A stretch of 64,000 nt of DNA, taken from the NCBI GenBank assembly GCA_963832025.1, contig CAWHSF010000002.1, positions 17,496 to 81,495 of the forward strand, in the 5' to 3' direction. This document shows positions 22,374-40,910 of this stretch, one piece after another (the first letter of the stretch is position 1; each line of letters opens with the position of its first letter). The stretch is from Candidatus Nomurabacteria bacterium (GTDB lineage: Bacteria; Patescibacteriota; Minisyncoccia; Phycocordibacterales; UBA9973). A program made the translations under genes and the position numbers. Under the pieces are notes generated by a model. That model saw only the letters and a list, made by a program, of their open reading frames with translations, searched no databases and had not been told where the DNA came from.

Positions 22374-22437
22374 AAAAAATATTTTATTAATTTATAATAA
22401 ATACATTACATTTTTCAAATATAGCAAAAAATTCAGA

Positions 22438-22653
22438 CTATGCCAATTTTTTGAGTTCACTTTCGTACTTTTTCATGACCTGCATTCCAGCGTCCATTTG
22501 ACTCATTCCGCTTTTCATTTTTTCTTGTATTTCCTCGGCAATCGTCTTGAACAGCTCCGGATTTTTTTCCATCATCCCTATAAACATATCTATCTGTGCT
22601 TCAGGAACCCCTTGGGTGCGAAGCATTTTTTTAAGTAAAAAATTTTTAAACAT
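22438..22653 (-). CDS. Hypothetical small Met/Lys-rich helical protein
   Basis: 71-aa ORF filling the gap between flanking genes. No family recognised. Confidence 0.45.
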   Translation of the reverse strand: MFKNFLLKKMLRTQGVPEAQIDMFIGMMEKNPELFKTIAEEIQEKMKSGMSQMDAGMQVMKKYESELKKLA

Positions 22654-22671
22654 GATTTTGTTATCATAACA

Positions 22672-24177
22672 TTACTCATCCAGAATTTCAAAATCACTTC
22701 CATCTTCTTTTGGAGCAACCTTTTTCCGACGGATGAAATACACGGCATAAGCAGAAGCTCCAATAAGAACAAAAGAGGTAATAAAAATTAATATCTTTCG
22801 CAGAGAGAAACTTGGGGTTGGATTATTGGAATTTTCAACATCATTTTGCAAGGCTTTAGCAGTTAGGCTGTTTACGGCAGGAATATCCATCCCAGACGTT
22901 GGACGTCTAGAAGCTTCCAGACGTCCAACGTCTGTAGGTTTATCCACAGTAGCAGTCATAATTGGGACAGTTGGTGGAGATAAGTAATCAAAAATTATAT
23001 TCCCTTGTGAGTCACTTAATTTTAAAGTATTTTCATCTGCGATGGAGAAATTTGTAATTTTTGGAGAAAGTGTAATCTTATCTTTTGAAGCCACTATTGT
23101 ATTTTTCGGAAAAACAAAACTTTTTTGTGTGCTGGATAAAATCCAACCGGAAATATCTGCACTGTAAGATGTGTTGTTGGTAAGTTCGACAAAAAAATCT
23201 CTACTGTCGCCGACATTGGAGATAGAAATATCTGCAGGAATTATTTTTACATCAATTTGATCGGTTGCATCGGGAATAAGATTCCCGGAATAATAATTTT
23301 CATAATAATCGAGAGAGACAACATAATCTCCCGTATAATAAAATGTGTGAGAAAAAGTTTTGCTATTGGTTAAATCAATTTCCTTTGAGTCTCCGTCACC
23401 AAAATTCCAAAAGTATTTTCCGAAAAATATTTTTTCTCCACCATATCCAGTTGTCGTAGCGTTGAAAGAAACGGGAATGCCAACAAAGTTAATTACTTGT
23501 CCTATGATTTTAGTTTTAATATTTGGTGACTCTGCCTGATTTTGACTCGTTGTGGCAGAAGTGACCGTGGGAGAAGAGCTATTATTTACAACGTTATTTG
23601 CCGGCAAACCACCTCCGACGACTGCATCTGAAGAGGTAGAAGAAACAACCGTATTTGCTGAAACATTTGCGACCCCTGGAGTCGGCGTAGCCCCCACCCA
23701 AGAACCATTTATTAGTTGTAAAGAATTCCCATCACCGGCTCCGCCCTCACTCGAAGTATAAGTTACAGAATCTACGACATTGCCATCTTGGTCTAAAATT
23801 TTTAATGTCGCACCGTTATTGTTTAAACTTGTGATACCTGTGTCATAGACTGTGCCGGAAAAATTTGGATTGTCCGCTAAAAAAGTATCTTTATCTCCGG
23901 CAAAAACAACATAGCTGTTTGCAGGAATAGAAAAATCTGTTTCATCATTTATCGTTCTGTTGGCAGAGCCGTCATAAATTCTCCACTTCGAAGCATCGAC
24001 AGAAACGGCACTTCCGTCAGGATTGTAAACTTCAACCCACTCTCCACTTTTACTATTTGTGGAATCCGACCCAGACAAATCGTACATGATTTCATCAATT
24101 GAAAGGCTCGCAAAAACCAAGTGATAAGAAAAAAAGAAAATAACACCAGCAAAAACTAAAATAAGTTTTTTAGACAT
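22672..24177 (-). CDS. Surface protein: signal peptide, lamin-tail domain, PKD-like domain, second LTD, C-terminal TM anchor
   Basis: LTD-like region SIDEIMYDLSGSDS...EWVEVYN...NNNGATLKILD, PKD-like YFWNFGDGDS...TGDYVVSL, second LTD FFVELTNNTS...GWIL...LKLSDSQGNI, and C-terminal helix ILIFITSFVLIGASAYAVYFI. Confidence 0.75.
   Translation of the reverse strand: MSKKLILVFAGVIFFFSYHLVFASLSIDEIMYDLSGSDSTNSKSGEWVEVYNPDGSAVSVDASKWRIYDGSANRTINDETDFSIPANSYVVFAGDKDTFLADNPNFSGTVYDTGITSLNNNGATLKILDQDGNVVDSVTYTSSEGGAGDGNSLQLINGSWVGATPTPGVANVSANTVVSSTSSDAVVGGGLPANNVVNNSSSPTVTSATTSQNQAESPNIKTKIIGQVINFVGIPVSFNATTTGYGGEKIFFGKYFWNFGDGDSKEIDLTNSKTFSHTFYYTGDYVVSLDYYENYYSGNLIPDATDQIDVKIIPADISISNVGDSRDFFVELTNNTSYSADISGWILSSTQKSFVFPKNTIVASKDKITLSPKITNFSIADENTLKLSDSQGNIIFDYLSPPTVPIMTATVDKPTDVGRLEASRRPTSGMDIPAVNSLTAKALQNDVENSNNPTPSFSLRKILIFITSFVLIGASAYAVYFIRRKKVAPKEDGSDFEILDE
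22893..22934. repeat. GACGTTGGACGTC palindromic element inserted in-frame in the LTD surface protein
   Basis: CAGACGTTGGACGTCT-agAAGCTTcc-AGACGTCCAACGTCTG encodes TDVGRLEASRRPTSG. It shares its arms and the central AAGCTT with 4802-4849. Confidence 0.88.
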
Positions 24178-24216
24178 TTGTTTTTAAATATGTTTATAAT
24201 ATGTTAAAATCATATC

Positions 24217-25230
24217 ATGGACAAAAATGGAGATGACAAAAAAATAGACTTTTTGGCGATTGGAGATACCGCAACCGATGTTTTTATCAAGCTTGAGGAT
24301 GAGAGCGGAGCGATTGTAAGTGGCATGCCGGACACGACAGATTATCGTATCTCACTCCCCTTTGCTACAAAAATTCCTTACAAGAGTGATGCAACTGTTG
24401 CGGGAGTCGGCAATGCCCCAAACGCTGCGGTAGCTGCATCTATCTTGGGGCTCGACGCAGCTTTAGTGGCCCATGTTGGCAATGATAGAGCAGGAGAAGA
24501 AACAATTGAATCACTAAAACAACATAAAGTAGATACAAATTTTATTGTGAAAGAGGCAGGCAAAAAAACAAATTACTCCTACATCCTCTGGTATAAAGAT
24601 GACAGAACAATCTTAAGACAGCATGAGAATTTTTCTTACGCCTTGCCTGATGCAGGATCTCCTTCATGGATTTATTTCAGCGCAGTCGGAGCAGGAGCTG
24701 ATAAATTTTATGAAGAGTTTGCTAACTACATCGAAAAAAACATTGAAGTTAATTTTGCATTTCAACCGGGAGGTAATGAAGTTAGCTTGGGAAAAAAGCT
24801 TCTTAGATTTTATAAACGCGCAAATATATTTTTATGCAACGTTGAGGAAGCAGAAACGATTTTGGACATTCAAGACCTGGAAGTTAAAGATCTCTTAAAA
24901 AAAATGCGGGAGCTCGGTCCGAAAACCGTAGTTATAACCGACGGACCGAAAGGCGCCTATGCTTATGACGGCACCGATATGTGGTTTATAAAACCATATC
25001 CTGACCCAAAACCTCCATACGAACGAACTGGCGCCGGAGACGCATTTTCTTCCACCCTGGTGACTGCACTAGCCCTGGGAAAAACTTTACCCGAGGCATT
25101 ACAATGGGGAGGCATAAATTCAATGTCGGTGGTTCAATATATCGGCTCGCAAGCCGGACTTCTTCCTCGCGAAAAAATTGAAGAATATATCAAAAATGCC
25201 CCGGCAGATTACAAAGCGGTAAAAATTTAA
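24217..25230 (+). CDS. PfkB-family carbohydrate kinase
   Basis: 337 aa with the GAGDAFSSTLVTAL signature and ribokinase-like architecture. Confidence 0.8.
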   Translation: MDKNGDDKKIDFLAIGDTATDVFIKLEDESGAIVSGMPDTTDYRISLPFATKIPYKSDATVAGVGNAPNAAVAASILGLDAALVAHVGNDRAGEETIESLKQHKVDTNFIVKEAGKKTNYSYILWYKDDRTILRQHENFSYALPDAGSPSWIYFSAVGAGADKFYEEFANYIEKNIEVNFAFQPGGNEVSLGKKLLRFYKRANIFLCNVEEAETILDIQDLEVKDLLKKMRELGPKTVVITDGPKGAYAYDGTDMWFIKPYPDPKPPYERTGAGDAFSSTLVTALALGKTLPEALQWGGINSMSVVQYIGSQAGLLPREKIEEYIKNAPADYKAVKI

Positions 25231-25240
25231 AGTTTATTTT

Positions 25241-26239
25241 TTAATTTTTTCTTTTCAAAACTTTTTTTACCGCATTTTTGATGGAATCTTTCCCCATACC
25301 GTAATGTTCAATGAGTTCATTCGGTGTACCGGACTGGCCGAATTTATCCTGCACCCCGAGAAATTCTATGGCTGTCGGATAATTTTTTGCCAAAACTTCT
25401 GCCACTGCGGAACCCATTCCACCAGCAACTTGATGTTCTTCTACCGTCACTATTGCTTTGGTTTCTTTTGCAAGACTTACTATCGCTTCCACATCTATAG
25501 GCTTGATACTTGAAAGATTCATCACTTTGGTTTTTATTCCTTCAGCTTCCAATTCTTTCGCAGCAAGCAATGCTTTATACATCAAACCGCCGGTAACAAT
25601 GATTCCAGCTTGCGCGAGCCCTACATCCGGCAGCCAATAAATTTCTGCTTTGCCTAAATCAAAAGGAGTTTCTTCGGTCGTGATAATTGGAGTTTTTTCA
25701 CGAACCAAACGCAAATATGCCGGCTTGGTTGTTTTCGTAAGTGCCAGCGTGGCTTTTTTTGCTTCAATTGAATCACAAGGAGAAACGACATCCATATTGG
25801 GAAGAATCCGCATCAGAGCAATATCTTCTAGTGCTTGGTGCGTACCACCATCAGGACCAACGGAAACGCCGGAATGCGAGCCGACAATTTTCACAGGTCT
25901 ATCGTTGTAAGCTATCGTTGTCCTGATTTGTTCCCAATTACGTCCCGGAGAAAACATGGCATAAGAGGTGCAGAAAGGAATTTTCCCCATCGCCGCCATC
26001 CCCGAAGCAACGGTTACTAAATTTTGTTCCGCTACGCCCATTTCGATGAATCTCTCTGTAAATTTGTCGGCAAACAGATTCATCTGGGTTGATTCTTTCA
26101 AGTCCGCGCAAAGACCGACAACGTTTTCATTTTCTTCGCCTACTTTTAGCAAGCCCTGTCCGAAACCTTTTCGGATGGGCACTTGCTCCACATCGTCATT
26201 CCAGATTTTCGGATTTAATTTTAGATTTGGATTTAACAT
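25241..26239 (-). CDS. Transketolase, C-terminal (pyrimidine-binding) subunit
   Basis: 332 aa with FIEMGVAEQNLVTVASGMA and VGPDGGTHQALEDIALMR. It pairs with the upstream N-terminal subunit gene. Confidence 0.88.
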   Translation of the reverse strand: MLNPNLKLNPKIWNDDVEQVPIRKGFGQGLLKVGEENENVVGLCADLKESTQMNLFADKFTERFIEMGVAEQNLVTVASGMAAMGKIPFCTSYAMFSPGRNWEQIRTTIAYNDRPVKIVGSHSGVSVGPDGGTHQALEDIALMRILPNMDVVSPCDSIEAKKATLALTKTTKPAYLRLVREKTPIITTEETPFDLGKAEIYWLPDVGLAQAGIIVTGGLMYKALLAAKELEAEGIKTKVMNLSSIKPIDVEAIVSLAKETKAIVTVEEHQVAGGMGSAVAEVLAKNYPTAIEFLGVQDKFGQSGTPNELIEHYGMGKDSIKNAVKKVLKRKN

Positions 26240-26253
26240 AAGCTTAAATAAAA

Positions 26254-27117
26254 TTATTGATTTTCACTTTTTATTTTTCCGCCTAAAGTACGCAACTCCC
26301 GCAAGGCCATTTCTGCTTCTTCTTTATTTGGCGCCTTACCGTGCCACTTATAATCTCTTTCAAATTCTCTTACGCCTTTACCGGGAATGGTGTGAGCAAT
26401 AATTACAGTTGGCTTTTCGTAAATATCTTGTGCCTCTTCCACTACTTCGTTTAAAGACTGAAAATCATGTCCGGAAACTTCAATGACATGCCAATTAAAA
26501 GCGCGCCATTTGCTTTGTAGTGGTTCAAGTGGCATGGTGTCTTCCGTAAACCCATCTATTTGAATATTGTTTCGGTCCACAATAGCAATCAAATTTCTTA
26601 ATTTGTTTTTTCCCGCCAGCATCACCGCTTCCCAAGTATTACCTTCATCCAATTCCCCATCGGACATAAAACAGTAAATAAATCTGTTCTTGTCTTTACG
26701 GTCGATTTTATCCGCGAGTGCCATGCCGACAGCTTGTGATAACCCGGAACCGAGCGGACCAGAAGAAGTTTCTACGTAAGGTAAATATTCCCGATGGGGA
26801 TGTCCTTGGAGTCTTGAACCGAATTTTCTCAAAGTGTTTAGTTCTTCGATTGGAAAATATCCAGCATGAGCCATCGTGGCATAAAGCACCGGACAAATAT
26901 GTCCATTGGAAAGCACTACACGGTCACGTTCCGGCCAAGAAGGGTTTTTGGGGTCATGTTTTAAGATATGAAAATAAAATAAGGTAAAAACATCCGCCAT
27001 GCCGAGCGGACCAGCCGTGTGTCCACTACCCGCTTCGAGTAACATAGAAATAATGCTTTCGCGAATATCGTTGGCTTTTTTTTCTAAATTTAAAATTTTT
27101 TCTTCGGATAAAAACAT
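26254..27117 (-). CDS. Transketolase, N-terminal (TPP-binding) subunit
   Basis: Motifs GHTAGPLGMADVF, SNGHICPVLYA, GPLGSGLSQAVGMA and DGELDEGNTWEA. I set the start to ATG 27117 (MFLSEEK...) to avoid overlap with the upstream gene. Confidence 0.85.
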   Translation of the reverse strand: MFLSEEKILNLEKKANDIRESIISMLLEAGSGHTAGPLGMADVFTLFYFHILKHDPKNPSWPERDRVVLSNGHICPVLYATMAHAGYFPIEELNTLRKFGSRLQGHPHREYLPYVETSSGPLGSGLSQAVGMALADKIDRKDKNRFIYCFMSDGELDEGNTWEAVMLAGKNKLRNLIAIVDRNNIQIDGFTEDTMPLEPLQSKWRAFNWHVIEVSGHDFQSLNEVVEEAQDIYEKPTVIIAHTIPGKGVREFERDYKWHGKAPNKEEAEMALRELRTLGGKIKSENQ

Positions 27118-27139
27118 TAGCTTAATTGTACCACAAAAT

Positions 27140-27844
27140 TTATATAAAACTTTGAAAGTTTTCGAGTGCGCCAATTGGGTCTGGATTTTTCCAGATAGCT
27201 GACCCCACAGTGAGTCGGTCTGCTCCGGCATCCAATATTTCTTTAGCATTGTTTAAATTCACACCAATATCCACGGATATAACAATGCCCGGTAAACTTT
27301 TCTTAAAAAATTTTATGGCTTCCAGGGCTTTATCGGAAAAAGGTTCACCCTGTAAACCAATCCTGTCTGAACCCATACAATGTAAGAAATCAACTTTGTG
27401 AGAAAGTTTAGAGACAGTCAGAAAATCATCACTGGGCTTAAAAGCGAGTCCAATCTGCACACTGTCTCGAATATAAATATCCAAGCCTTCCAAGAAATCT
27501 TCAAATTCTATAAGATTTTTATCCACTCCCAAGTGAAAAATAATCCTCTTGGGTCCCAGTTTCATATAAATATCAAAATTCTGGACCGCATCCGCCACCA
27601 TCAAATCCAATTCAAAATCAAAATCGGTCCAAAATGGCAGACCTTCTTCTTCATTCATAATCTTCTCAAAATCAAAATCCTCAAATCCCCCCGTCGCGAA
27701 AGGCCAAGTTTGACTTGCGACAAAAACTCCGTCACACATGTCCAAATGCACACATTTTGTTCTGCCGCGCAAAAAAGTAAGTTTGTTTTTTATCTCTCCA
27801 AAATCTTTTTCTAAAATTGCCGGAGTTATTTCTTTCATTTTCAC
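27140..27844 (-). CDS. Ribulose-phosphate 3-epimerase-like protein (divergent)
   Basis: 234 aa with HLDMCDGVFV, a DLMV...IIFH pattern, ISVDIGVN and GADRLTVGSAIW, resembling the Rpe TIM barrel. Context is the pentose-phosphate operon. Confidence 0.6.
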   Translation of the reverse strand: MKMKEITPAILEKDFGEIKNKLTFLRGRTKCVHLDMCDGVFVASQTWPFATGGFEDFDFEKIMNEEEGLPFWTDFDFELDLMVADAVQNFDIYMKLGPKRIIFHLGVDKNLIEFEDFLEGLDIYIRDSVQIGLAFKPSDDFLTVSKLSHKVDFLHCMGSDRIGLQGEPFSDKALEAIKFFKKSLPGIVISVDIGVNLNNAKEILDAGADRLTVGSAIWKNPDPIGALENFQSFI

Positions 27845-28656
27845 ATTATATCATTATTTAATTTTAACTTTTGCTTGTTTACTTCATCAACTAATACATC
27901 ATGAAATACTCCATTAGACGCAATAAAATAATTATTCGGAAAAATATAGGGGCTACCATCAAGCGCTGAAATTTTTCCTCCGGCTTCTTTTACTAAAATT
28001 ACTCCAGCGGCAAAATCATAAGAATTCAAACCAAGCTGAATATCTGCTTCAAATCCACCAGAAGCAACACAAGCCAAGTCAAGTGCCGAACAACCCATGT
28101 CTCGGACTGTGGTAACGACATTTTTGGGAAAATAATACATCAACTCTCTAAAAAGTCTTTCCACACTTTTTCCTTTACCTCTCGAAGCAGTAATCATACT
28201 ATGTGAAATGTCATCTTTGGAAACAAATATTCTTTTGCTGTTACAATATGCGCCTTTATTCTTTTCCGCATAAAATAAAATATCCGTTGTCGGGTTATAA
28301 ACAACTCCCAAAACAATTTCATTTTGAAAAGCCAGCGCAATTGAGACCGCAAAGACAGGAATATGATTTGAAAAATTTCTTGTCCCATCAATCGGGTCAA
28401 TGTACCAGACATAATCGCTCTTATTTACGGTCATACCTGTTTCTTCTCCCAATATTGAGTGTTCGGGAAAATTTCTGCAAATTATTTCCTTGATGATTTT
28501 TTCGGATTCCCTGTCAGCTAAAGTGACGGGAGAATTATCCTCCTTGAATTCTTTAATTATATCCGTCTCAAAGTGCTTTTCTAAAATTTTTCCGGCAGAT
28601 AAAGCCGCTTCTATCGCCACTTTTAATTCCGGTGATTTTTCCTCCATAAAAGTCAA
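27841..28656 (-). CDS. Inositol monophosphatase/FBPase-family phosphatase
   Basis: 271 aa with EETG, WYIDPIDGTRNF and YDFAAG motifs. Confidence 0.8.
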   Translation of the reverse strand: MTFMEEKSPELKVAIEAALSAGKILEKHFETDIIKEFKEDNSPVTLADRESEKIIKEIICRNFPEHSILGEETGMTVNKSDYVWYIDPIDGTRNFSNHIPVFAVSIALAFQNEIVLGVVYNPTTDILFYAEKNKGAYCNSKRIFVSKDDISHSMITASRGKGKSVERLFRELMYYFPKNVVTTVRDMGCSALDLACVASGGFEADIQLGLNSYDFAAGVILVKEAGGKISALDGSPYIFPNNYFIASNGVFHDVLVDEVNKQKLKLNNDIM

Positions 28657-29129
28657 TCAATTTTTATCGCGTCTATTTTTGCTAAACGGCGGATGTGCCT
28701 TTCGTCTTCACTAAAAGGAGTAGCAAGCCAAAGATTCACAGCATCCATCATGCTTTCTTCCGTCAGATATCGAGCGCCGAGAGATAGGACGTTTGAGTTA
28801 TTGTGTTCTCGAGAACGAACAATTATATCTGATTCATTATCAACCACAGGTACAGCTTTACCATAAAAGACAACTGCTCGAACATGGGGAAATTTATTTG
28901 CAGCAATAGCTTCACCTTGTCCGGTAGAGCCGAGAATAATACCTTTCACATTATCTGAATCTTTGGAAACAGCGCGAGCTACCGGCACAACAAAGTCAGG
29001 ATAGTCATCTACTTCATTGTATTCAAACGCTCCCATGTCTAAGACTTCATAGCCTTGACCTTTTAAAGATTTTACAAGTGCCTCTTTTAAAACATACCCT
29101 GCATGATCAGTGCCGATATATATTTTCAT
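28653..29129 (-). CDS. rpiB: Ribose-5-phosphate isomerase B
   Basis: 158 aa with N-terminus MKIYIGTDHAGYVLKEAL and GSTGQGEAIAANK, typical of RpiB/LacAB. Confidence 0.85.
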   Translation of the reverse strand: MKIYIGTDHAGYVLKEALVKSLKGQGYEVLDMGAFEYNEVDDYPDFVVPVARAVSKDSDNVKGIILGSTGQGEAIAANKFPHVRAVVFYGKAVPVVDNESDIIVRSREHNNSNVLSLGARYLTEESMMDAVNLWLATPFSEDERHIRRLAKIDAIKID

Positions 29130-29138
29130 ATGACAATA

Positions 29139-29800
29139 TTATACCACTTCACTTTCTCTACGCAATTCTGAAAACAAAGCCACCGTCTGTCCAAAATCTT
29201 TTTCTGCAACTATAAAGATAAATTCTGTCGGAGTAGAAACAAGTTCTTCTATATTTATACGGGCACGAGCCGTCACAGAAAGTAAGGAGAAAGAAAGTGT
29301 TTGGCACACTAAAAACATCTGGATCAAAAGAAATTCCAATCGCCGCCAAGTTATGATTGATAATTTTTGGTTTTATTTTAAAATGTTTTAATAACTTTAT
29401 TCGCCAAATTTGAAGAACAAATAATGTCAACTTCTTTTGTGCTCATGTTGGTCGTAAAAAAATCATCTCTAGATATTAAAATATTTTTATGCAAAGATTC
29501 CAATCCTTCAATAAATTTACTAGTATTTTCGTAAACAATTTCCGATAGTGGCAATTTTGTATTGATATTTAAAATTTCAACTTTATGAATCAGTGGCTTT
29601 TCTTTCTTGAATTCTTTGCGCAAGCGTGACAAAGTAACCACCAAGCTGGCAATTGTGACTTTCTTTTTTGTAAGCGCTTCCACTTGTGGACGAATGCGAT
29701 AAGCATAACTGCTCATATTCATATAACCGTTAGTCAAAGCAAATAAGGCTTCGATTTCTCCAAGCACAATTTCCCGCACCACCGGTTGAATCTTAATCAT
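29139..29800 (-). pseudogene. Hypothetical protein with ACT-like C-terminus, broken by two +1 frame breaks
   Basis: Three overlapping ORFs read through as ...NKVIKTF | KIKPKIINHNLAAIGISFDPDVFSVPNTF | SFSLLSVTARARINIEELVSTPTEFIFIVAEKD.... The breaks lie near 29380 and near 29290. Confidence 0.55.
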
Positions 29801-30021
29801 TTATATATTCTAACAGATTTAACAAATAGTTCAAATTGCAACATGGATGTTAAAAAACTTACTATGCCTTTGTGGCATTGATATAATTTATGGAAGGAGT
29901 GTTCCATGCGATACACTGCACAGGAGTTCAATGAGTGGGATAACGAAGAATAATCTCGTTGTCCTCCAATCCAACAGGTCGGGTCAGTCGCGTCGAAAAC
30001 GCCACTGACCCCACCAAATTT

Positions 30022-30948
30022 ATGCAAAAAGTATCAAAAAATATTTCGAGGGGATTATTGGAAGCTATTGGAAATACTCCATTGGTGAAAGTTCCTTTTA
30101 AAACTAAAGCAGAGGTTTTTGCCAAACTGGAATATTTAAATCCGGGTGGAAGTATTAAAGACCGTTCAGCGCGTTTTATGATTGAAGAAGCGGAAAAGAA
30201 AGGTTTATTAAAACCGGGAGGAACTATTATCGAATCTTCTTCAGGAAATCAAGGAGTTGCCTGCGCAATGATTGGGGCGATAAAGAGATATAAAGTTATA
30301 ATTACCGCATCTCCGGCTATGAGTGAAGAAAAAGTAAAGACAATCAAAGCCTACGGCGCAAAAGTTATAATGTGCCCCGCTGTTTCTATTTCTGACCCAA
30401 AAAGCAGACACAATATAGCCAAAGAACTTGTGAAGAAAATTCCAAACTCCTTCATGCCAAATCAATATTTTAATCTTTCTAATCCAAAAGCCCATTACAG
30501 TTCGTTGGGACCGGAAATTTGGCGTCAGACAAAAGGAAGAATCACCCACTTTTTTGCAGCAGCCGGAACCGGAGGCACGGTCAGCGGTGCGGGAAAATTT
30601 TTAAAAGAAAAAAATCCAAAAATTAAAATTATGGCTGTTGATATCGACACATCTTTTCATTCGACAAACGGTCATCCTAAGCCCTATAAAATGGAAGGAA
30701 TAGGAATTGATTTTAAAACGGATTGTTTAAATGAAAAAATCATTGATAAGTTTTTTCCAGTTTCAGATAAACACGGTCTTGGAATGCTCCCAGTGATGGC
30801 ATCTAAGTACGGTCTCCTAGTAGGTACAGGCAGTGGAGCTGTATCTTATGCAGTCAAAAGTTATTTAAATAGACTGAAAAAAGGCGATGTGGTGGTAATG
30901 CTTTTCGGTGATTCTGGCCGAGCTTACTTGTCAAAAAATTACTATTGA
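30022..30948 (+). CDS. PLP-dependent cysteine synthase/cystathionine beta-synthase family enzyme
   Basis: Motifs IGNTPLVKV, NPGGSIKDR and SSGNQGVA. I prefer ATG 30022 to the TTG at 29959 used by the track. Confidence 0.82.
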   Translation: MQKVSKNISRGLLEAIGNTPLVKVPFKTKAEVFAKLEYLNPGGSIKDRSARFMIEEAEKKGLLKPGGTIIESSSGNQGVACAMIGAIKRYKVIITASPAMSEEKVKTIKAYGAKVIMCPAVSISDPKSRHNIAKELVKKIPNSFMPNQYFNLSNPKAHYSSLGPEIWRQTKGRITHFFAAAGTGGTVSGAGKFLKEKNPKIKIMAVDIDTSFHSTNGHPKPYKMEGIGIDFKTDCLNEKIIDKFFPVSDKHGLGMLPVMASKYGLLVGTGSGAVSYAVKSYLNRLKKGDVVVMLFGDSGRAYLSKNYY

Positions 30949-30950: not shown

Positions 30951-31975
30951 TTATTTTATCCACTCCCCGGTTTTGATGACATGGTCCACGAGCATGTGCG
31001 TGTACCCCATTTCATTATCGTACCAACCCATTACTTTTACCAGATTGCCTCCGACAACGCGCGTCATTTTCAAGTCCGCGATTGAACCATACTTGCTTCC
31101 CAGAATATCACTCGAAACCAAATCTTCTTCCGTCACACTGAAAATATTTTCCCATCTTTTTTCCGAGGCAGCTTTTTTCAGGATTGCATTCACCTCTTCG
31201 GCGGTCGTATCTTTTTTGGAAATAAAAGTCACATCGACAATCGAACCAGCTGGCACCGGCACGCGCATAGAAATGCCATCAAAAAGTTTGTCTAATTTAG
31301 TAAATGCTTTCGTCACGGCGATGGCTGCGCCAGTCGAAGATGGCACAATGTTCTGCGCCGCCGCTCTGCCTTCACGAAAATCTTTTTTGTTTGGTCCGTC
31401 GACAATTCCTTGGCTCGCGGTGTATCCGTGTACTGTATTTAAAATCGCTTTTTCAATTCCGAGAGCCTCGTCCAAAATCGCGATGAGCGGGCTAGCAGCA
31501 TTGGTCGTGCAAGAAGCATTGGAAGTGATATCGCAGGTTCCAAATTTTTCTTCATTCACTCCAAGTAAAATAGTTTCGCCCGTCACACTACCGTCTCCTC
31601 TTAGCTGGAGCAGAAATGACAACTTTTTTTGCGCCAGCATCAAGATGCACCTTTGCTTTATCAAAAGCTAGTAAAAAGTCCGGTAGATTCCACCACCACA
31701 TCCACACCCAAATCTTTCCAGGGGAGCAACGTCGGGTCTCTTTGCGCCAAAACTTTTACTTTTTTTCCATCAATCACGATATTGTCTCCATCGATTTTAA
31801 TGTCATGTTCCCATTGCCTGGAAACCGTATCGTATTTTAATAAATAGGCCATATTTTTTATATCGCCCAAATCATTTAAGGCGACAACTTCAATTTCCGG
31901 CTTATCCCAAGCAACTTTTAAAAATGCTCTACCAATTCTTCCGAACCCATTTATTCCTACTTTGATTGTTTTCAT
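30951..31975 (-). pseudogene. gap: Glyceraldehyde-3-phosphate dehydrogenase interrupted by two +1 frame breaks
   Basis: The N-terminal ORF ends ...VVESTGLFTSF*. A third frame reads DKAKVHLDAGAKKVVISAPAK. The C-terminal ORF resumes GDGSVTGETILLGVNEEKF...SNASCTTN. All segments match the GAPDH consensus. Confidence 0.85.
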
Positions 31976-32102: not shown

Positions 32103-35100
32103 ATGATAGAAGAAACACAATTTATCCACCTCCATACCCACTCCCATTATTCCCTATTGGATGGGCTTTCTAAGCTTGAAGATTTGGTTGATTTGGCTAA
32201 AGAAAATGACATGCCGGCGCTGGCGATTACCGACCACGGCAACATGTATGGCGCTATTGAATTCTATAAATTAGCAAAAAAGGCAGGAATAAAACCGATC
32301 ATCGGAGTAGAAGCATACATAACTACGGGTTCCCGCAAAGACAGGAATACAGAAGCTGGTGGCACAAAACGATACTATCACCTAACTTTGCTTGCAAAAA
32401 ATCTGCAGGGTTATAAAAACTTGATGCGATTGGTAACCATTTCCAATTTGGAAGGTTATTATTACAAACCGCGAATGGACAAAGAAATATTGAGACAATA
32501 TGGACAAGGAATAATTGCGCTCTCGGGATGTCTCGGTGGAGAATTGGCGCAATCGCTTGTAAACAAGGATGAAGAAAAAGCTCTAAGAATAATACGAGAA
32601 CATCAAGAAATTTTCGGCAAGGAAAATTATTTTCTGGAAATTCAAAGACATCCAAAATCTCCCAATGACGAAGAAGTGCACAAAAAGATTATTGCTTTGG
32701 GTAAAAAATTAAATATTCCTATTGTTGGAACGATTGATTCACACTACCCTTGCGCTGAAGACCGCAAAGCGCATGAAACTTTGCTCGCAATCCAGACCAA
32801 TTCCGATATTAAAGATGAAAATAAATTTTCCTTCGGTGAAGATGATTATTTTTTTGTAAATACACAGCAAGCGCAAGAACTTTTTAAAGACATTCCGGAG
32901 GCAGTAACTAATACGATGAAAATTTCCGATATGTGTAATGTCGAATTAAAATTGGGAGAATGGGTTTTCCCTGATTTTAAATTGGAAACCGGTGTTACTT
33001 ATGATGCAAAATTGCGTGAGTTAACTTATGCTGGTTTTGAAAAATTAAGCATAAAGCAAACACCCGAAATTACGGAACGCGTAGAATACGAACTAAAAAT
33101 TATTGCCGACAAAGGATATGCTCCGTATTTCTTGGTAGTCGGAGACTTGCTCCGCCATGCCAAAGAAAACGGCATTTTGAGCGCTATCCGAGGCTCCGTC
33201 GCCGGCTCGATGGTTACTTATCTTTTGCACATCACAAACATTGACCCATTGGAATATAAATTGCCGTTTGAGAGATTTCTAAATCCTTTTCGTCCTTCAC
33301 CACCCGATATAGATATGGACTATGCCGACAACCGTCGAGATGAAATGATTGAATATGTAAAACAAAAATACGGCGAAGAAAAAGTGGCGCAAATTGGAAC
33401 TTTTGGCACGATGATGGCGCGTGGCGCAGTCCGCGATGTGGCTCGAGCGCTCGCCTACCCATATACAATCGGCGACAGAATATCAAAAATGATTCCTATG
33501 GGTGCGCAAGGAATGCCGATGACCATAGACCGTGCGATGGAAATTGTTCCTGAATTAAAAGAAGCTTATGAAAAAGAAAAAGATACAAAAGAAATTATTG
33601 ATCTTGCAAAAAAACTGGAAGGATGTGTTCGTCATATTTCTGTGCATGCCGCTGGGGTGGTTATCGCTCCAAAACCAATCTATGAATACATGCCGACCCA
33701 GCTCGACCCGAAGGGTGGAAAAATTATCACTCAATACGATATGTATAGTGCCGAAGATGCCGGGCTTTTAAAATTCGACTTTTTAGGAATAAGAAATCTG
33801 GCAATATTAGCCGATGCAATTTCTCTAGTCAAAAAATTCTACGATATAAATATCAATATAAACCGTATCCCTTTGAATGATAAAAAAACTTTTGAACTTT
33901 TAGCTAGTGGGCAAACGGAGGGATTATTTCAATTAAACGGTTCCGGTATGACTAGATATTTAAAAGAATTGAAACCCACTTCTATTCACGATATCAATGC
34001 CATGGTAGCACTCTATCGTCCCGGACCGATGGAATCAATTCCTGAATATATCAAACGCAAACATAATCCAAAACTCGTAAAATATTTGGATCCAAGAATG
34101 AAAAAATTCTTGGGTGAATCTTATGGACTAATTGTTTACCAAGATGATTTACTTTTTTGCGCTATCGATCTAGCTGGCTACAACTGGGAAGAAGCAGATA
34201 AATTCCGCAAGGCCGTCGGAAAAAAAATACCGGCTGAAATGGCAGCCCAGCGAGAAAAATTTACCAAAGGAATAATTTCAAACGGTCAGACGCCGGAATT
34301 TGCCGAAAAACTTTGGAAACTTTTTGAACCTTTTCAAGCTTACGGTTTCAATAAAGCCCACGCCGCTTCATACGGCCAAGTCGCCTATCAAACAGCTTAC
34401 ATGAAGGCAAATTATCCGGTGGAATATATGACGGCAATTTTGACAGCTGAATCCGGCGATGTGGAAAAAATTGCCCAAATCATTGAAGAATGTAAAAACA
34501 TGAAAATACCGGTACTTCCACCGAATATCAATGAAAGTTTCGGGGGTTTTACATGTCTATCGGAAAAAACGGGAATAAATGTAAATAGCGAAAATAAAAG
34601 CAGTAAAATAAGGTTTGGTTTTTATACAATTAAAAATCTAGGTACCGATATTTCGGATGCCATTATTGCTGAACGAAAGAAAAATGGAAAGTTTCAATCT
34701 ATCTCCGATTTCCTGGATAGAATAAAACATAAAAATCTTAATAAAAAATCAATGGAAGCATTGATTAAATCTGGCTGTATGGATGACCTGCCTGCCGGCA
34801 GGCAGGATGGAAGCGACCGTGGAATTTTACTTGCAAATCTTGAAGCAATGCTTGAATACAATCATGAAAACGGAAAACAAAATGAAAATCAAGTTTCTCT
34901 TTTTGGCGGAACAAATAAAATATCCGCTCCGGAATTTAAATTGCAAACAGCTCCGGAAGCCACCCAGGCAGAAAAATTACTCTGGGAAAAAGAATTGTTG
35001 GGACTTTATATTTCCGGCCATCCGCTTGACCGCCTCCGTGAAAAATTAGAAAAAAGGCCATTGAATATAAAGAAGGTAAAAGAAGAATTTGGAAATGGAA

Positions 35101-35342
35101 TGCAAGTTACCTTAGCTGGCATAATCGAAACCGCGCGCCAAGTCGTGACAAAAAACAACGACCGAATGGCATTTCTAAAAATCTCAGATTTAACCGATTC
35201 CATTGAGGCTGTAGCTTTCCCTTCCATTTTTAAAGAAACAGTAGATTTATTTGTACCAGAAAAATGCATCGCTTTTTCCGGTAAAGTATCCAATCGTAAT
35301 GGAGAAAAGAGTATTATTATTGAAGCGGTAAAAGAAATTTAG
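32103..35342 (+). CDS. dnaE: DNA polymerase III alpha subunit
   Basis: 1079 aa with PHP domain FIHLHTHSHYSLLDG, polymerase core motifs (PDIDMDY, GLLKFDFLG) and a C-terminal OB-fold region. Confidence 0.93.
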   Translation: MIEETQFIHLHTHSHYSLLDGLSKLEDLVDLAKENDMPALAITDHGNMYGAIEFYKLAKKAGIKPIIGVEAYITTGSRKDRNTEAGGTKRYYHLTLLAKNLQGYKNLMRLVTISNLEGYYYKPRMDKEILRQYGQGIIALSGCLGGELAQSLVNKDEEKALRIIREHQEIFGKENYFLEIQRHPKSPNDEEVHKKIIALGKKLNIPIVGTIDSHYPCAEDRKAHETLLAIQTNSDIKDENKFSFGEDDYFFVNTQQAQELFKDIPEAVTNTMKISDMCNVELKLGEWVFPDFKLETGVTYDAKLRELTYAGFEKLSIKQTPEITERVEYELKIIADKGYAPYFLVVGDLLRHAKENGILSAIRGSVAGSMVTYLLHITNIDPLEYKLPFERFLNPFRPSPPDIDMDYADNRRDEMIEYVKQKYGEEKVAQIGTFGTMMARGAVRDVARALAYPYTIGDRISKMIPMGAQGMPMTIDRAMEIVPELKEAYEKEKDTKEIIDLAKKLEGCVRHISVHAAGVVIAPKPIYEYMPTQLDPKGGKIITQYDMYSAEDAGLLKFDFLGIRNLAILADAISLVKKFYDINININRIPLNDKKTFELLASGQTEGLFQLNGSGMTRYLKELKPTSIHDINAMVALYRPGPMESIPEYIKRKHNPKLVKYLDPRMKKFLGESYGLIVYQDDLLFCAIDLAGYNWEEADKFRKAVGKKIPAEMAAQREKFTKGIISNGQTPEFAEKLWKLFEPFQAYGFNKAHAASYGQVAYQTAYMKANYPVEYMTAILTAESGDVEKIAQIIEECKNMKIPVLPPNINESFGGFTCLSEKTGINVNSENKSSKIRFGFYTIKNLGTDISDAIIAERKKNGKFQSISDFLDRIKHKNLNKKSMEALIKSGCMDDLPAGRQDGSDRGILLANLEAMLEYNHENGKQNENQVSLFGGTNKISAPEFKLQTAPEATQAEKLLWEKELLGLYISGHPLDRLREKLEKRPLNIKKVKEEFGNGMQVTLAGIIETARQVVTKNNDRMAFLKISDLTDSIEAVAFPSIFKETVDLFVPEKCIAFSGKVSNRNGEKSIIIEAVKEI
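34787..34806. repeat. Perfect 20-bp GC-rich palindrome in-frame in dnaE
   Basis: CCTGCCTGCCGGCAGGCAGG encodes LPAGRQD in an otherwise AT-rich gene. Confidence 0.75.
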
Positions 35343-35866
35343 TTATAAATAGACATCGCTTTCTCTTTACTCTCTGTAAAAATACATTCAACTGCTTCGG
35401 CGACTTTTTTTGAAAGTTTTTTTATAATCTCCAATTCTGGTTTTTTGTAAACACCCAACAAAAAATTAAGAACTGCTTTCTCCCCTTTTGGTTTCTTCAC
35501 TATACCCTTTGGAGTAGATGGTGAGATACCGACTCTGATACGCAAAAATTCTTCACTTTTTAATGACTTGATTATTGAGCCCAAGCCATTGTGGCCGCCA
35601 GAAGAACGATTGAAGGAAATTTTAATTTTTCCGAGTGGTAAATCAATGTCGTCGTAAATGACCACCAAATCTTTTAAATCTTTTTTTGATTTTATTAGCG
35701 GAGCGACTGTTTTGCCGGAGTTATTCATAAAAGTATCTGGCGTGAGAAATTTAATTTTTTGATCTTCCATTTTTTTTTCCAATATCTCAACCAAAATACG
35801 TCCAGTGTTATGTCTGGTGTTTTCATATTCCTTCCCCGGATTCCCCAAACCGACAACTAATTTCAT
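35339..35866 (-). CDS. pth: Peptidyl-tRNA hydrolase
   Basis: 175 aa with LVVGLGNPGKEYENTRHN and GGHNGL motifs. Confidence 0.9.
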   Translation of the reverse strand: MKLVVGLGNPGKEYENTRHNTGRILVEILEKKMEDQKIKFLTPDTFMNNSGKTVAPLIKSKKDLKDLVVIYDDIDLPLGKIKISFNRSSGGHNGLGSIIKSLKSEEFLRIRVGISPSTPKGIVKKPKGEKAVLNFLLGVYKKPELEIIKKLSKKVAEAVECIFTESKEKAMSIYN

Positions 35867-35961
35867 GTCTCCCTATAATAACACAAGACTTTGTCATGTC
35901 TAAATTATTAGACAATAAATTAGACTATCATGTCAATAACTTTTTGTGTTATATTGTAGCA

Positions 35962-36552
35962 ATGGAACAAATAAAACCTATTGAGAAAGTGCAGGAGAAA
36001 ACTAAAATGCAGACATTTTGGGAGTTGGTACGTTTCGCATTAATAGCATTGATAATTGTTATTCCTATCCGTATTTTTGTCGCTGAACCGTTTATTGTGT
36101 CTGGCACTTCAATGGTGCCCACGTTTGAAAACAATGATTATTTAATTGTAGATAAAATATCTTATGAATTAGGGAGTCCACAGAGAGGCGACGTGGTGGT
36201 CTTCAGATATCCAGATGACACAACGAAATTCTTTATAAAAAGGATAGTTGGGCTTCCGGGAGATACGGTTGATGTTAATAGTAGTACGAATCAAGTGACT
36301 ATTACTAATAAAGAACATCCAAATGGATTTCAACTTGATGAATCTTTTGTGCAAAATCCTGGAGGAATAAATGGACATATTGTCTTAGGAGTCAATCAAT
36401 ATTATGTGATGGGTGACAACAGAATTGCCAGCTCGGATTCAAGATATTGGGGTCCGGTAAGTAAAAATCTTTTAGTAGGAAAAGTCTTTCTGCGTTTACT
36501 GCCAGTAAACAATATAGATGTTTGGCCCGGTAGCGTTAAAGAAGAACAATAA
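35962..36552 (+). CDS. lepB: Signal peptidase I
   Basis: Motifs SGTSMVPTF, KRIVGLPGD and GDNRIASSDSRYWG. Start moved to ATG 35962 (MEQIKP...). Confidence 0.88.
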   Translation: MEQIKPIEKVQEKTKMQTFWELVRFALIALIIVIPIRIFVAEPFIVSGTSMVPTFENNDYLIVDKISYELGSPQRGDVVVFRYPDDTTKFFIKRIVGLPGDTVDVNSSTNQVTITNKEHPNGFQLDESFVQNPGGINGHIVLGVNQYYVMGDNRIASSDSRYWGPVSKNLLVGKVFLRLLPVNNIDVWPGSVKEEQ

Positions 36553-36553
36553 A

Positions 36554-37855
36554 ATGAAAAAAACAACCCAAAAAAATAAAATAAACGAGATAGCTTCCCC
36601 AAAAGGAATGAGAGATTTAATGAACGAAGATTATTATGCTTTTCAAGGATTCTTTGAAAAAGCTCAGGAAGTGGCTGTGTATTACGGTTTCAAACCCATA
36701 GATACTCCGATGCTGGAATATGAGAATATTTTTACCACGACCATTGGAGAAGGCACAGATATTATAGATAAAGAAATGTACACTCTCAAAACTAAAGGTG
36801 GAGATCATCTGGCACTTCGACCTGAACACACCGCTCCACTCATGCGCGCATACATAGAACACGGTATGCAAAATATGCCTCAACCGGTAATGTTTTATCA
36901 ATACGGTCCGGTTTTCAGACATGACAAGCCTCAAAAGGGACGTTATCGACAACTTTGGCAATTCGATTTGGATTGTCTAGGAAACGAAAAAAGTATTATG
37001 GATGCTCTGGTGATAAAAACAGGTATGACTATTTTAGAAGAAGCTGGAGCAGAAAATCTTTCAATTGAAATTAATTCAATTGGAGACAAGGAATGCAGAA
37101 ATGGATATGTTAAAGAACTAACAAACTATTATAGAAAACATCTAAGCAGTCTGCCTGCAATAGACCGTGAGAGACTAAAAAAGAATCCTTTGCGTATTTT
37201 GGACTCCAAGGAAGAGAAAACAAAAGAGATAAATGTCTCCGCTCCGGACGCTGTATCTTTCCTCTGCCCTTCTTGTAAAAAACATTTCAAAGAAGTTTTG
37301 GAATATTTGGAAGAAATGAATATTCCATATAACATAAATAAAAATTTAGTTCGCGGACTTTCTTATTATACTCGCACTGTTTTCGAAGTTTACACAGAAA
37401 GTTCGGAAGAAGGCGGATCGCCCATACAGATTGCTTCCGGTGGACGTTATGACTATCTGGCAAAACAATTAGGCGGAAAAAAAGACGTGCCGAGTGTCGG
37501 GTTTTCGATCGGAGTAGATAGGACCGTAGAATCGAGTTGGTATAAAAAACTTGCGCCCCGCATCATAAAAAAACCAAAAATTTATTTTATCCAGCTAGGC
37601 TCTGAGGCAAAATTAAAGAGCTTAAATATTATTGAAATATTACGCAAAGCTCATGTTCCGATTGCTCAATCACTTTCCAAAGACAGCCTAGGCGCGCAAC
37701 TCGCAATTGCAGAAAAACTGGCTATTCCTTATGCCATAATCTTCGGAGTAAAAGAGGCTTTGGATAATTCTGTAATTGTGCGAGATATGTCAAATAGGTC
37801 ACAAGACACTGTAAAACTAAATAAACTTTTGGAATACTTAAAAGAAATAAAGTAA
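36554..37855 (+). CDS. hisS: Histidyl-tRNA synthetase
   Basis: Motifs PKGMRDL, LRPEHTAPLMRAY, FRHDKPQKGRYRQLWQFD and GGRYD. Start moved to ATG 36554. Confidence 0.9.
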   Translation: MKKTTQKNKINEIASPKGMRDLMNEDYYAFQGFFEKAQEVAVYYGFKPIDTPMLEYENIFTTTIGEGTDIIDKEMYTLKTKGGDHLALRPEHTAPLMRAYIEHGMQNMPQPVMFYQYGPVFRHDKPQKGRYRQLWQFDLDCLGNEKSIMDALVIKTGMTILEEAGAENLSIEINSIGDKECRNGYVKELTNYYRKHLSSLPAIDRERLKKNPLRILDSKEEKTKEINVSAPDAVSFLCPSCKKHFKEVLEYLEEMNIPYNINKNLVRGLSYYTRTVFEVYTESSEEGGSPIQIASGGRYDYLAKQLGGKKDVPSVGFSIGVDRTVESSWYKKLAPRIIKKPKIYFIQLGSEAKLKSLNIIEILRKAHVPIAQSLSKDSLGAQLAIAEKLAIPYAIIFGVKEALDNSVIVRDMSNRSQDTVKLNKLLEYLKEIK

Positions 37856-37859
37856 AAAC

Positions 37860-38393
37860 ATGAGAGAGATAGTCCAAAAAAACGATAAAGTTTTAAGAGA
37901 AAAATCAAAAGAAATACTAATTAAGGATATTAAAAATCTTAAAATAAGAAAAGTTTTGAAAGAAATGTCGCTAGCCCTAAAAAGCCAAAGCGATGGAGTG
38001 GCTATCGCCGCTCCACAAATAGGATATTCACTTTCAATTTTTATCGTTTCGGGAAAAATATTTCATAAAGACTTTGTCCGCGGAGAAGAAGCTCTTAAAA
38101 ATATTTCTGAAAAAGAAGTGCCGAAAGATTTAGTTTTTATTAATCCAAAAATTTCCAAACTGTCTCGTGAAAAAGAGTGGGTACCGGAGGGATGTCTTTC
38201 GGTGAGATGGCTTTACGGCAACACTTTTAGGTCAAAGAAAGCAACGGTCACAGCTTACGATGAGAATGGTAAAAAATTTATGCGAGGCGCATCCGGACTC
38301 CTAGCACAAATCTTCCAACATGAAACTGATCATTTAAATGGCGTTCTTTTCATCGACCACGCCAAAGATATTAAAGAAGAGCTGCCAAAATAA
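37860..38393 (+). CDS. def: Peptide deformylase
   Basis: Motifs GVAIAAPQIG, EGCLS and QHETDHLNG. Confidence 0.9.
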   Translation: MREIVQKNDKVLREKSKEILIKDIKNLKIRKVLKEMSLALKSQSDGVAIAAPQIGYSLSIFIVSGKIFHKDFVRGEEALKNISEKEVPKDLVFINPKISKLSREKEWVPEGCLSVRWLYGNTFRSKKATVTAYDENGKKFMRGASGLLAQIFQHETDHLNGVLFIDHAKDIKEELPK

Positions 38394-38398
38394 ATAAT

Positions 38399-39223
38399 AT
38401 GAGTGAAAAATTAAATTTTATATTTTTCGGCACTCCAGATGTTGCTAGAGATACCCTTGAGATTTTAAAACAAAATGGTTATGCGCCATCGCTTGTTGTC
38501 ACCTCTCCTGACAAACCACAAGGACGCAAAATGGTGGTTACCCCTACTCCAGTCAAGGTGTGGGCAGAAGAAAATAATATTTCATATATTCAACCCGACA
38601 AACTAGATATTTCCAACCTCACAGAAGCTGATTTTTTCATCGTTGTCGCTTACGGAAAAATTCTTTCTGAAGAGATTTTAAACCTGCCTAGGCTTGGTTC
38701 CATAAATATACACTATTCCCTTTTACCAAAATATCGTGGAGCTTCGCCCGTAGAATCCGCTATTTTAAATGGCGACACAGAAACAGGAGTGAGTATTCAG
38801 AAAATGAAATTCAAAATGGATTCTGGCCCAATCGTTGCACAAGAAAAAATTAAAATACTTCCGACTGAAAAAGCATCAGAATTAAGAAACCGCCTAATTA
38901 GAATTGGCGGAGAACTTTTGGTAAAGACTTTGCCAAAAATTATCGAAGGCGAGATTAAAGAAACTGAACAAAATGAAACCGAAGCGACCTTTTCAAAAAA
39001 AATAGCTAAAGAAGATGGACAAATAGATTTGAGCGATGATGCAGAAAAAAATTACAACAAATTTAGAGCACATGCCACTTGGCCCCGAACCTTCTTTTTC
39101 AAAGATGGCAAACGAATCATTATCACCGATGCATCCTTAGAAAATAACGTATTCATAATTAAAAAAGTCCTTCCTGAAGGCAAAAAAGAAATAACTTGGG
39201 AACAATTTAATACTTGGAAGTAA
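38399..39223 (+). CDS. fmt: Methionyl-tRNA formyltransferase (short form)
   Basis: 274 aa with IFFGTPDVA and NIHYSLLPKYRGASPVESAI; located immediately after def. Confidence 0.88.
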   Translation: MSEKLNFIFFGTPDVARDTLEILKQNGYAPSLVVTSPDKPQGRKMVVTPTPVKVWAEENNISYIQPDKLDISNLTEADFFIVVAYGKILSEEILNLPRLGSINIHYSLLPKYRGASPVESAILNGDTETGVSIQKMKFKMDSGPIVAQEKIKILPTEKASELRNRLIRIGGELLVKTLPKIIEGEIKETEQNETEATFSKKIAKEDGQIDLSDDAEKNYNKFRAHATWPRTFFFKDGKRIIITDASLENNVFIIKKVLPEGKKEITWEQFNTWK

Positions 39224-39605
39224 ATGGATTTCTTTTGGAAAGTCCTTTGGTCATTTTTTTCACACTAGCTGCGCCACGTCTGAATAGAGTTTGCTTACGG
39301 TCTTTGTTTTTACCAATATCATTAAAAAGTTGCTCTTTGACCACATCAATCGCAGTATATAAATCTTCGTGATCACTCTCTCCGTAATATTTTTGTCCGT
39401 CGACACTTATAGTGCAATCAGCGTGAAAAATTTCACCAGCTTTATGATGGTTGGTAGTTTTCGCAACTTCAAACTTCACTCTGGCTTCACCTTTATTTGT
39501 TTCAATGTTGGAAAGCAGTTTTTCCAAATTGGTCACTTTCTTGATGACATAATCTTTAATGGCGTCCGTTAATTCTATATTTTTACTTTGTAAATCTATT
39601 TGCAT
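39207..39605 (-). CDS. hpf: Ribosome hibernation promoting factor / ribosome-associated inhibitor family
   Basis: 132 aa. N-terminus MQIDLQSKNIELTDAIKDYVIKKV is typical of the HPF/YfiA family. Confidence 0.8.
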   Translation of the reverse strand: MQIDLQSKNIELTDAIKDYVIKKVTNLEKLLSNIETNKGEARVKFEVAKTTNHHKAGEIFHADCTISVDGQKYYGESDHEDLYTAIDVVKEQLFNDIGKNKDRKQTLFRRGAASVKKMTKGLSKRNPFTSKY

Positions 39606-39645
39606 AATTTCTTATTATATCAATTTATAATGCTATAATCAAATT

Positions 39646-40900
39646 ATGACCAAAACCATAAAAATACTTATAATCGGCAATGGGTTCGGAGGAATGTATA
39701 GTTTAAAGAATATTTATAAACAATTGCGTGACCACCAAAACATTGAACTATCAATGATTGGAGAGAAAAATTATTTTCTCTTTACGCCACTTTTACACGA
39801 AGTAGCCACCGGAGGAATAAACCCTCTAAATATTATTGAGCCAATACGAAAAGTTTTAGGCTGTTATTTAAATAATTTTTATCTAGGAAAAGCCGAGGAA
39901 ATAAACTTGCAGAATAAAACTGTAATGGTTGACAAAGTACTTATACCTTACGACTATCTGGTAATTGCTCCAGGATCAGAAACAAATTTTTTCAATACTC
40001 CCGGCACAGAAAAATATACGTTTACGTTGAAATCTATAAACGATGCAATCAGAATAAAAAATCATTCCATAATGCAGATGGAACGGGCTTCACACATAAA
40101 AGACAGTAAAGAAAGAAAGAAAATGCTTAGATTTTTGATCGTTGGAGGTGGACCGACTGGCGTAGAGTTAGCGGCAGAGATGGAAGAATTGGTCAGAGAA
40201 ACTTTTTCTCATTATTATAGAAAAGAAATAGTGGACGATGTATCAATTGTTTTGGTACAAGGAGGGGAGAGAATTAGTGCCTCAGTTTGGAAAAAAAATA
40301 CGGGAGAAGAGTTTATCTGTGTTGCAAAAAAAAGGAGTAGAAGTAATGCTCAACTCCATCGTTAAAAAAGTTGAATCATCCTACGTTGTGATTAATGACG
40401 AAAATAAAATTTTCACAGAAACAGTCATTTGGGTAGGTGGTGTAAAACCGGCCAGTTTAAACTTTGACCAACCCGTAGAAAAAGACAAGAGTGGAAAGTT
40501 GATAATCAATGAATATCTACAATTAGAAAATTACAAAGAAGTCTTTGCTATTGGTGATATTGCTTGCTTTAAAAATAAAGATGTCGTTTTGCCCGCTTTA
40601 GCACAAGTCGCTCAAAAAGAGGCAAAAAAAGTTGCGAAAAATATAAAATTTCTAATCGATGGATATACTCCGGAGAAATTTTCTTATCACAGCTCTGGCA
40701 ACTTGATGTCCCTCGGTCAGTGGATGGCCCTAGGTGAAATAGAAAAATTTTCTTTCAAATTTTCTTTCTCGGGCCATCTGGCTTGGTGGTTCTGGAGAAC
40801 GGTTTATCTTTCAAAATTAATATCTTTCAGGAAAAAAGTTCGCGTCGCTGTAGATTGGACGATGAATATCTTTTCTCCGAGAGACATTTCGCAGTTATAA
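39646..40900 (+). pseudogene. ndh: Type II NADH dehydrogenase (NDH-2) with one +1 frame break
   Basis: ORF1 has ILIIGNGFGGM and IVGGGPTGVELAAEM, then leaves the homologous frame after ...IVLVQGG. ORF2 continues RELVPQFGKKIREKSLSVLQKKGVEV.... The break is at the G-run 40264-40267. Confidence 0.8.
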
Positions 40901-40910
40901 TTTACTTCTT

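Follow-up and report, generated by a model that had tools for sequence, protein, structure and literature searches.

Single-base insertions, probably of assembly-level or strain-level origin, split the GAPDH gene and two further genes in a Nomurabacteria contig

Results

The gap gene is distributed over three reading frames

The window, by which we mean the whole stretch of 64,000 nucleotides that was analysed, holds a gap gene encoding GAPDH that is broken at two places (Table 1). Six-frame translation bore out the first-pass annotation of this DNA, which had described two +1 breaks that carry the gene through frames 0, +1 and +2, the first of them at a run of four T residues (31663-31666), with 21 codons of GAPDH readable only in the +1 frame and the remainder in +2. 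In the frame-0 piece, the sequence ...VVESTGLFTSF is followed by UGA UAA, the stop lying at 31663-31661. The +1 frame continues past codon 125 as AGG AGA CGG UAG and stops at 31590-31588, and the +2 piece, GDGSVTGETILLGVNEEKF...SNASCTTN...EWIK, extends from GGA at 31598 to 30954, with its stop at 30953-30951. As encoded, gap occupies three frames, with stops after codon 104 and three codons after codon 125, and no single frame contains the gene. The two junctions are spaced 66 nt apart and a run of seven A residues (31624-31630) lies between them; no homopolymer is present at the second junction (GCT AAG A GGA GAC). In the protein collection, the 104-aa frame-0 ORF has as its sole source one 87,261-nt NCBI/ENA contig, from which the window evidently derives, and the C-terminal piece is called as a 229-aa product (MLAQKK...) on the source contig only.

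Table 1. Positions in the window of the gap gene and its junctions, of other genes discussed, and of the matching Logan contigs.
Feature	Position	Strand	Description
gap (GAPDH)	31975-30951	minus	frames 0, +1 and +2 in succession (six-frame translation)
gap codons 1-104, frame 0	31664-31975	minus	start of NAD-binding domain, MKTIKVGINGFGRIGR...VVESTGLFTSF
gap junction 1	31663-31666	minus	TTTT, where the in-frame gene needs TTT (Phe104); yields UUU UGA UAA
gap codons 105-125, frame +1	31600-31662	minus	DKAKVHLDAGAKKVVISAPAK
gap junction 2	31597-31602	minus	AAGAGG, versus AAAGG or AAGGG in relatives; one extra base
gap codons 126-340 and stop, frame +2	30951-31598	minus	GDGSVTGE...SNASCTTN (catalytic Cys)...EWIK
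Junction-spanning peptides of full-length GAPDH			LFTSFDKAK and SAPAKGDGSVTGETILLGVNEEK
Conserved hypothetical gene (hyp), upstream of rpiB	29139-29800	minus	219 aa when repaired; frames 0, +1 and +2
PALP-family gene	30022-30948	plus	intact in the window (308 aa)
NDH-2 (type II NADH dehydrogenase)	39646-40900	plus	417 aa when repaired; one +1 insertion
Logan contig L081 (6.9 kb)	22368-29276		100% identity
Logan contig L086	29538-30957		99.58% identity
Logan contig L085 (18.4 kb)	32544-50900		99.93% identity

Five insertions in three genes form a cluster

The same progression through frames 0, +1 and +2 recurs, as the first-pass annotation had stated, in the gene at 29139-29800. That annotation had labelled the gene ACT-like, a label that drew no support from Pfam, NCBIfam or PDB, where our searches returned no match for a family assignment, and we refer to it here as the conserved hypothetical gene hyp. 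Its homologues in Nomurabacteria are 219-235 aa long and about 90% identical, and its two insertions are GT[T]ATT at 29393-29394 and TTT[C]TCC at 29289. A third split gene, NDH-2 (39646-40900), was absent from the earlier description; its insertion lies in the run GGGG at 40264-40267.

In the whole window there are exactly five +1 insertions, two each in gap and hyp and one in NDH-2. The three split genes represent about 5% of the ORFs of the window (about 65, an approximate count). No further split genes were found there, as the other overlapping pairs of ORFs on the same strand are separate genes with complete domains. The five insertions span 10,975 nt, and the remaining 53 kb of the window contain no split genes. 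Under random placement, such clustering is improbable, whether judged by the span (P=0.004) or by the occurrence of four sites within 2.4 kb (P=0.0009), and so is the presence of two insertion pairs whose members are each at most about 105 nt apart (P=0.00035). The suggestion that homopolymers caused the breaks holds in so far as three of the five insertions extend runs (in gap a T3 run becomes T4, in hyp a single T becomes TT, in NDH-2 a G3 run becomes G4), but these runs are short, and frame breaks occur at none of the 331 runs of at least 6 nt in the window.

The first 2.4 kb of the window (2-2383, minus strand) look poor in ORFs and proved to be one intact 794-codon ORF running off the window edge; because the edge cuts it, the ORF tool does not list it and the region looks non-coding. 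An RNA gene and a repeat array, considered as candidates for this region, were both rejected. The first residues of this ORF suggest a putative PEP-utilising enzyme.

The repaired gap gene encodes an ordinary type I GAPDH

Deletion of one base at each junction restores a protein of 340 aa. The repaired protein matches the Pfam families Gp_dh_N (1.2e-37) and Gp_dh_C (1.8e-51), and it passes the NCBIfam equivalog model for GAPDH-I, TIGR01534, with 378.9 bits versus a cut-off of 367.2 over profile positions 1-330 of 330. Its alignment with the twelve closest homologues (339-340 aa) is free of gaps, at 91-94% identity (93-94% to homologues of 340 aa), and the protein has both the catalytic motif SNASCTTN and, near its N-terminus, the NAD-binding motif GxGRIGR, each invariant across these twelve proteins. 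We conclude that the window carries an unremarkable type I gap gene, from a genome of Nomurabacteria (Paceibacterota, CPR).

At the DNA level, the two single bases are the sole indels in an alignment to the three closest sequences (81-82% identity). Where the window has the first junction, relatives carry TAT, TAC or TTT followed directly by GAA or GAT. The residues that repair places at the junctions are typical of the family, with Phe104 found in 48 and Asp105 in 115 of 241 relatives and KGDGSV as the consensus. Codons 105-125 agree with the family consensus except for a common E/D variant, and the differences between this 63-nt middle segment and relatives are nearly all synonymous. Since the two bases are the only indels and the junction residues are family-typical, each break in gap is a single base cleanly inserted into a gene that is fully conserved in all other respects. 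A more complex change from TAT to TTTT at the first junction was considered and rejected, because Phe104 is a common variant.

The protein and DNA alignments with homologues contain no further indels, stops or lost invariant residues in gap, in agreement with the earlier claim that there is no decay beyond the two shifts. The lack of other decay excludes an old pseudogene, and the breaks must be either evolutionarily very young or not biological.

The three genes are uninterrupted in related genomes

A scan with one genome per species yielded 80 Nomurabacteria/Paceibacterota (CPR) loci with 77-88% protein identity. The comparison of the gap locus with sister genomes, which the first-pass annotation had proposed, gave a uniform answer: local tblastn places gap in a single frame in 80/80 relatives, and the frame split occurs in the window only. 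The best 120 database homologues of GAPDH are likewise all uninterrupted, with lengths of 339-374 aa. Therefore, the shifts are not a conserved feature of the lineage. In addition, hyp is uninterrupted in all 11 relatives with a full-length match, and NDH-2 is uninterrupted over its junction in 10/10 relatives.

The order of genes around gap (dnaE, gap, a variable gene, the conserved hypothetical gene, rpiB, rpe, transketolase and pfkB) is conserved. Three relatives carry extra short copies of the end of gap, comprising its last 23-31 codons at 65-69% identity, which lie downstream of the intact gene at distances from a few hundred to about 1300 nt (L008, 11266-11334 and 11686-11754; L018, 12296-12373; L067, 11246-11338). 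Elsewhere in the window, positions 22672-24177 encode a protein of 501 aa that has a lamin-tail domain (PF00932) and is conserved beside pentose-phosphate genes in the relatives L082 and L083.

An independent assembly samples very close strains

Logan contigs assembled from run ERR11523672 represent the same organism as the window, at 99.6-100% identity. NDH-2 carries the single insertion of the cluster that can be checked in this independent assembly, and the insertion is absent there: contig L085 has GGG where the window has GGGG, and encodes an intact NDH-2 (P0132, 417 aa). Contig L086, in turn, has a 2-nt deletion at its position 1116 (T2 versus T4 at 30654-30657 of the window), which leaves the PALP-family gene in two pieces of 206 and 85 aa. 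With NDH-2 broken in the window and the PALP-family gene broken in L086, frame-breaking indels differ between the two assemblies in both directions. The window has the longer allele in every case, both at the five junctions and at the two further indels by which it differs from the Logan contigs.

Of the ten SNPs aligned between the window and L085, nine are transitions and one is a transversion, and 7/9 of the coding SNPs are synonymous. The window and Logan assemblies are thus samples of real, very close strains under strong purifying selection, and in view of such selection five frameshifts in three genes would be an anomalous excess. There are no homopolymer discrepancies between the window and the Logan contigs in 26.7 kb, which, together with the absence of breaks at the 331 longer runs, indicates that the assembly of the window is not generally noisy.

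The Logan contigs end on either side of both junction pairs (29276|29538 and 30957|32544). SNPs between the window and L085 are concentrated in the 5' part of dnaE, with six in 360 nt (32543-32903) versus five in the following 18 kb, and the divergence between strains near the junction pairs reaches about 1.7%. The SNP-dense stretch of dnaE, which lies beside gap, may be a recombination tract.

Two differences between the assemblies fall in spacers. In the spacer between the divergent starts of NDH-2 and a ribosome hibernation factor of the S30AE family, the window has an extra AA (39606-39607) and there is a SNP at 39617. Between hyp and the PALP-family gene, four adjacent bases differ (29835-29838), reading ATTG in the window and TACA in L086.

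An independent copy of gap was sought by several routes. Exact look-ups with the 104-aa fragment, DnaE and the 308-aa PALP protein found none, nor did queries with the repaired 340-aa GAPDH, four start variants of the C-terminal piece and ten candidate cut products that begin near junction 2. Database searches with the repaired GAPDH, the junction segment and the C-terminal part returned nothing above 95% identity except the window's own fragment. Two allele-tolerant DNA-pattern scans of JGI metagenome contigs for gap gave 0 matches, and a literature search on the run accession ERR11523672 found no mention of it.

Discussion

The first-pass annotation had offered three options for the breaks in gap without ranking them. 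An insertion artefact and a very recent pseudogene, that is, an assembly-level or a strain-level event, both stand; recoding fares badly, as the shifts are unconserved and have no stimulatory structure. Overall, the breaks are most likely assembly-level or strain-level insertions, and nothing in the data points to a new biological mechanism.

We slightly favor an explanation in which close strains were collapsed into one contig of a metagenome-assembled genome (MAG), leaving unfixed or spurious insertions. In the 11-kb stretch that holds the five insertions, at least two very close strains occur together and show local divergence, and a consensus or assembly step that collapses or patches their reads can introduce spurious or non-fixed indels. 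The organism itself would then probably make a normal 340-aa GAPDH. The collapse of close alleles that differ by nearby variants has been reported to produce spurious indels and apparent frameshifts (PMC8445201). Like assembly and consensus frameshift artefacts (PMC8445201; bioRxiv 10.64898/2026.05.13.725050), the breaks described here are single-base indels in otherwise perfectly conserved genes, are confined to one assembly, and are concentrated where close variants coexist. They differ from such artefacts in falling outside long homopolymers and in a contig that is otherwise very accurate. The extent of the damage also differs, with about 5% of the genes of the window affected as compared with a reported figure of about 0.4% of loci in Nanopore metagenome genomes. 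The one-sided bias towards the longer allele suggests a technical process, of which it is more typical than of natural mutation, and further support for a technical origin comes from the essentiality of gap, from the way the insertions fall in pairs and cluster tightly where strains diverge, and from the intact NDH-2 of L085. Counting against it are the accuracy of the window elsewhere and the PALP deletion in the k-mer assembly, as real frameshift alleles may circulate in the population. On balance, we infer that the two insertions in gap share the origin of the cluster, and that they arose by a technical route and do not represent a real minority allele. A variant of this explanation, in which the junction pairs flank highly conserved blocks prone to cross-mapping, was unsupported, since the block in gap ranks only in the top 20% (78% versus 74.5% mean identity).

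A tentative alternative, which we regard as possible but doubtful, is that one strain recently acquired real loss-of-function single-base insertions in gap, NDH-2 and hyp while its sister strains remained intact. This might happen, for example, in a repair-deficient or declining lineage or within a locally hypermutated or imported tract, and gap would then be a brand-new pseudogene without rescue. The agreement of the window with the independent assembly (99.6-100%, with homopolymer discrepancies absent) speaks for real alleles, and the SNPs look natural (9/10 transitions, 7/9 coding changes synonymous), so that the indel differences could be real too. The Logan assembly has its own frame-breaking deletion in the PALP-family gene, and three of the five insertions duplicate a neighboring base, as expected from polymerase slippage. 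The pairing of insertions is also compatible with null alleles, because a second hit in a dead gene is neutral and the chance of both second hits falling this close is about 0.04, which is not extreme. On the other hand, no route through lower glycolysis other than GAPDH is visible, and since the neighboring genes (rpiB, rpe, transketolase and enolase) suggest that the organism ferments sugars, a null allele would be expected to carry a heavy cost. The confinement of three broken genes to 11 kb, and their absence from the remaining 53 kb, speaks against decay of the genome as a whole, and all five events are insertions, whereas natural indel spectra usually favor deletions. The comparison with recent pseudogenes of reduced or declining bacterial genomes is similarly divided: these share with the window single-base frameshifts in conserved genes and the involvement of several genes, but here gap, hyp and NDH-2 show no other decay, the breaks do not extend beyond 11 kb, gap has a central place in energy metabolism, and in the one checkable case, NDH-2, an intact allele exists in the same sample.

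Far less probable in our view is that programmed +1 decoding at UUU-U (junction 1) and near AAG-A-GGA, or tRNAs that read quadruplets, produces full-length GAPDH. The first junction does have the form of a shifty stop: while UGA occupies the A site, the tRNA-Phe in the P site can move from UUU onto the overlapping UUU and still pair perfectly, a rule known from RF2 and P-site slippage. The +1 frameshift of prfB, the gene of release factor 2, takes place at CUU UGA C with an upstream Shine-Dalgarno-like element, and junction 1 of gap (UUU UGA U) resembles it in having a re-pairable P-site codon followed by an in-frame UGA. This likeness arises, however, from the insertion of a T into a TTT codon that precedes GAT, and any insertion into a short run automatically gives an XXX-X motif. 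Unlike prfB, gap has no Shine-Dalgarno-like element at the required spacing (about 3 nt, as in RF2) upstream of junction 1 and no conservation of the shift in relatives (0/80, and 0/120 closest homologues); it has a second shift 66 nt later that lacks a slippery site, and there is no autoregulatory logic for GAPDH. At junction 2, an AGGAG motif resembles a Shine-Dalgarno element, but the combination of slippery P-site codon and stop seen at junction 1 (UUU UGA) is absent from the position where homology demands the shift (AAG A GGA), and a shift at the stop codon of this junction would turn the conserved GDG into RRR.

In favor of such decoding, all five shifts are +1, and the second hyp junction (UUU-C) and the NDH-2 junction (GGG-G) permit perfect +1 re-pairing. 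Against this, the first hyp junction sits 13 nt upstream of a UUU UAA site, a shift at that site would lose a His kept in seven intact or partial homologues (L083, P0125-P0129), and the NDH-2 shift is missing from the 99.93%-identical independent assembly (L085). Predicted RNA folding energies do not stand apart from those of shuffled controls (z = 0.08, -0.94, -0.37), none of the codons AGG, CGG and CTC is extremely rare, and UGA serves as an ordinary stop codon here. The broader proposition that all five insertions are real and fixed, and that full-length GAPDH, NDH-2 and the third protein are still made through permissive +1 decoding, would call for an unusual degree of permissiveness, for example slippage in the P site on UUU-U, UUU-C and GGG-G or tRNAs that read quadruplets, and we give it very little credence. 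Least probable of all, to the point of being negligible, is a restoration of the frame in some transcripts through slippage by RNA polymerase. In its favor, the G+C content of about 37% makes the genome A+T-rich, and there is an A7 run between the junctions. In insect endosymbionts, rescue by transcriptional slippage is known at long poly(A) tracts, and the situation here is similar in that a frameshifted essential gene lies in an A+T-rich reduced genome. Efficient slippage is known from runs of about 9 nt or more, however, and unlike in the endosymbionts a long homopolymer is absent from both junctions of gap, which are a T4 run and the non-repetitive AAGAGG; slippage on the A7 run could not bypass the UGA UAA directly after junction 1.

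If the insertions were real and fixed, they would imply either a CPR strain without its own lower glycolysis, strongly dependent on a partner cell, or efficient +1 decoding, and with permissive decoding this would be the first CPR bacterium in which several core metabolic genes undergo +1 recoding. The evidence points away from real and fixed insertions. If the insertions are instead artefacts or unfixed, as we slightly favor, the lesson concerns data quality, with the locus marking a strain-heterogeneous stretch that assemblers handle badly; GAPDH and NDH-2 would be recorded as missing from the MAG, and metabolic reconstructions of a CPR organism would be distorted.
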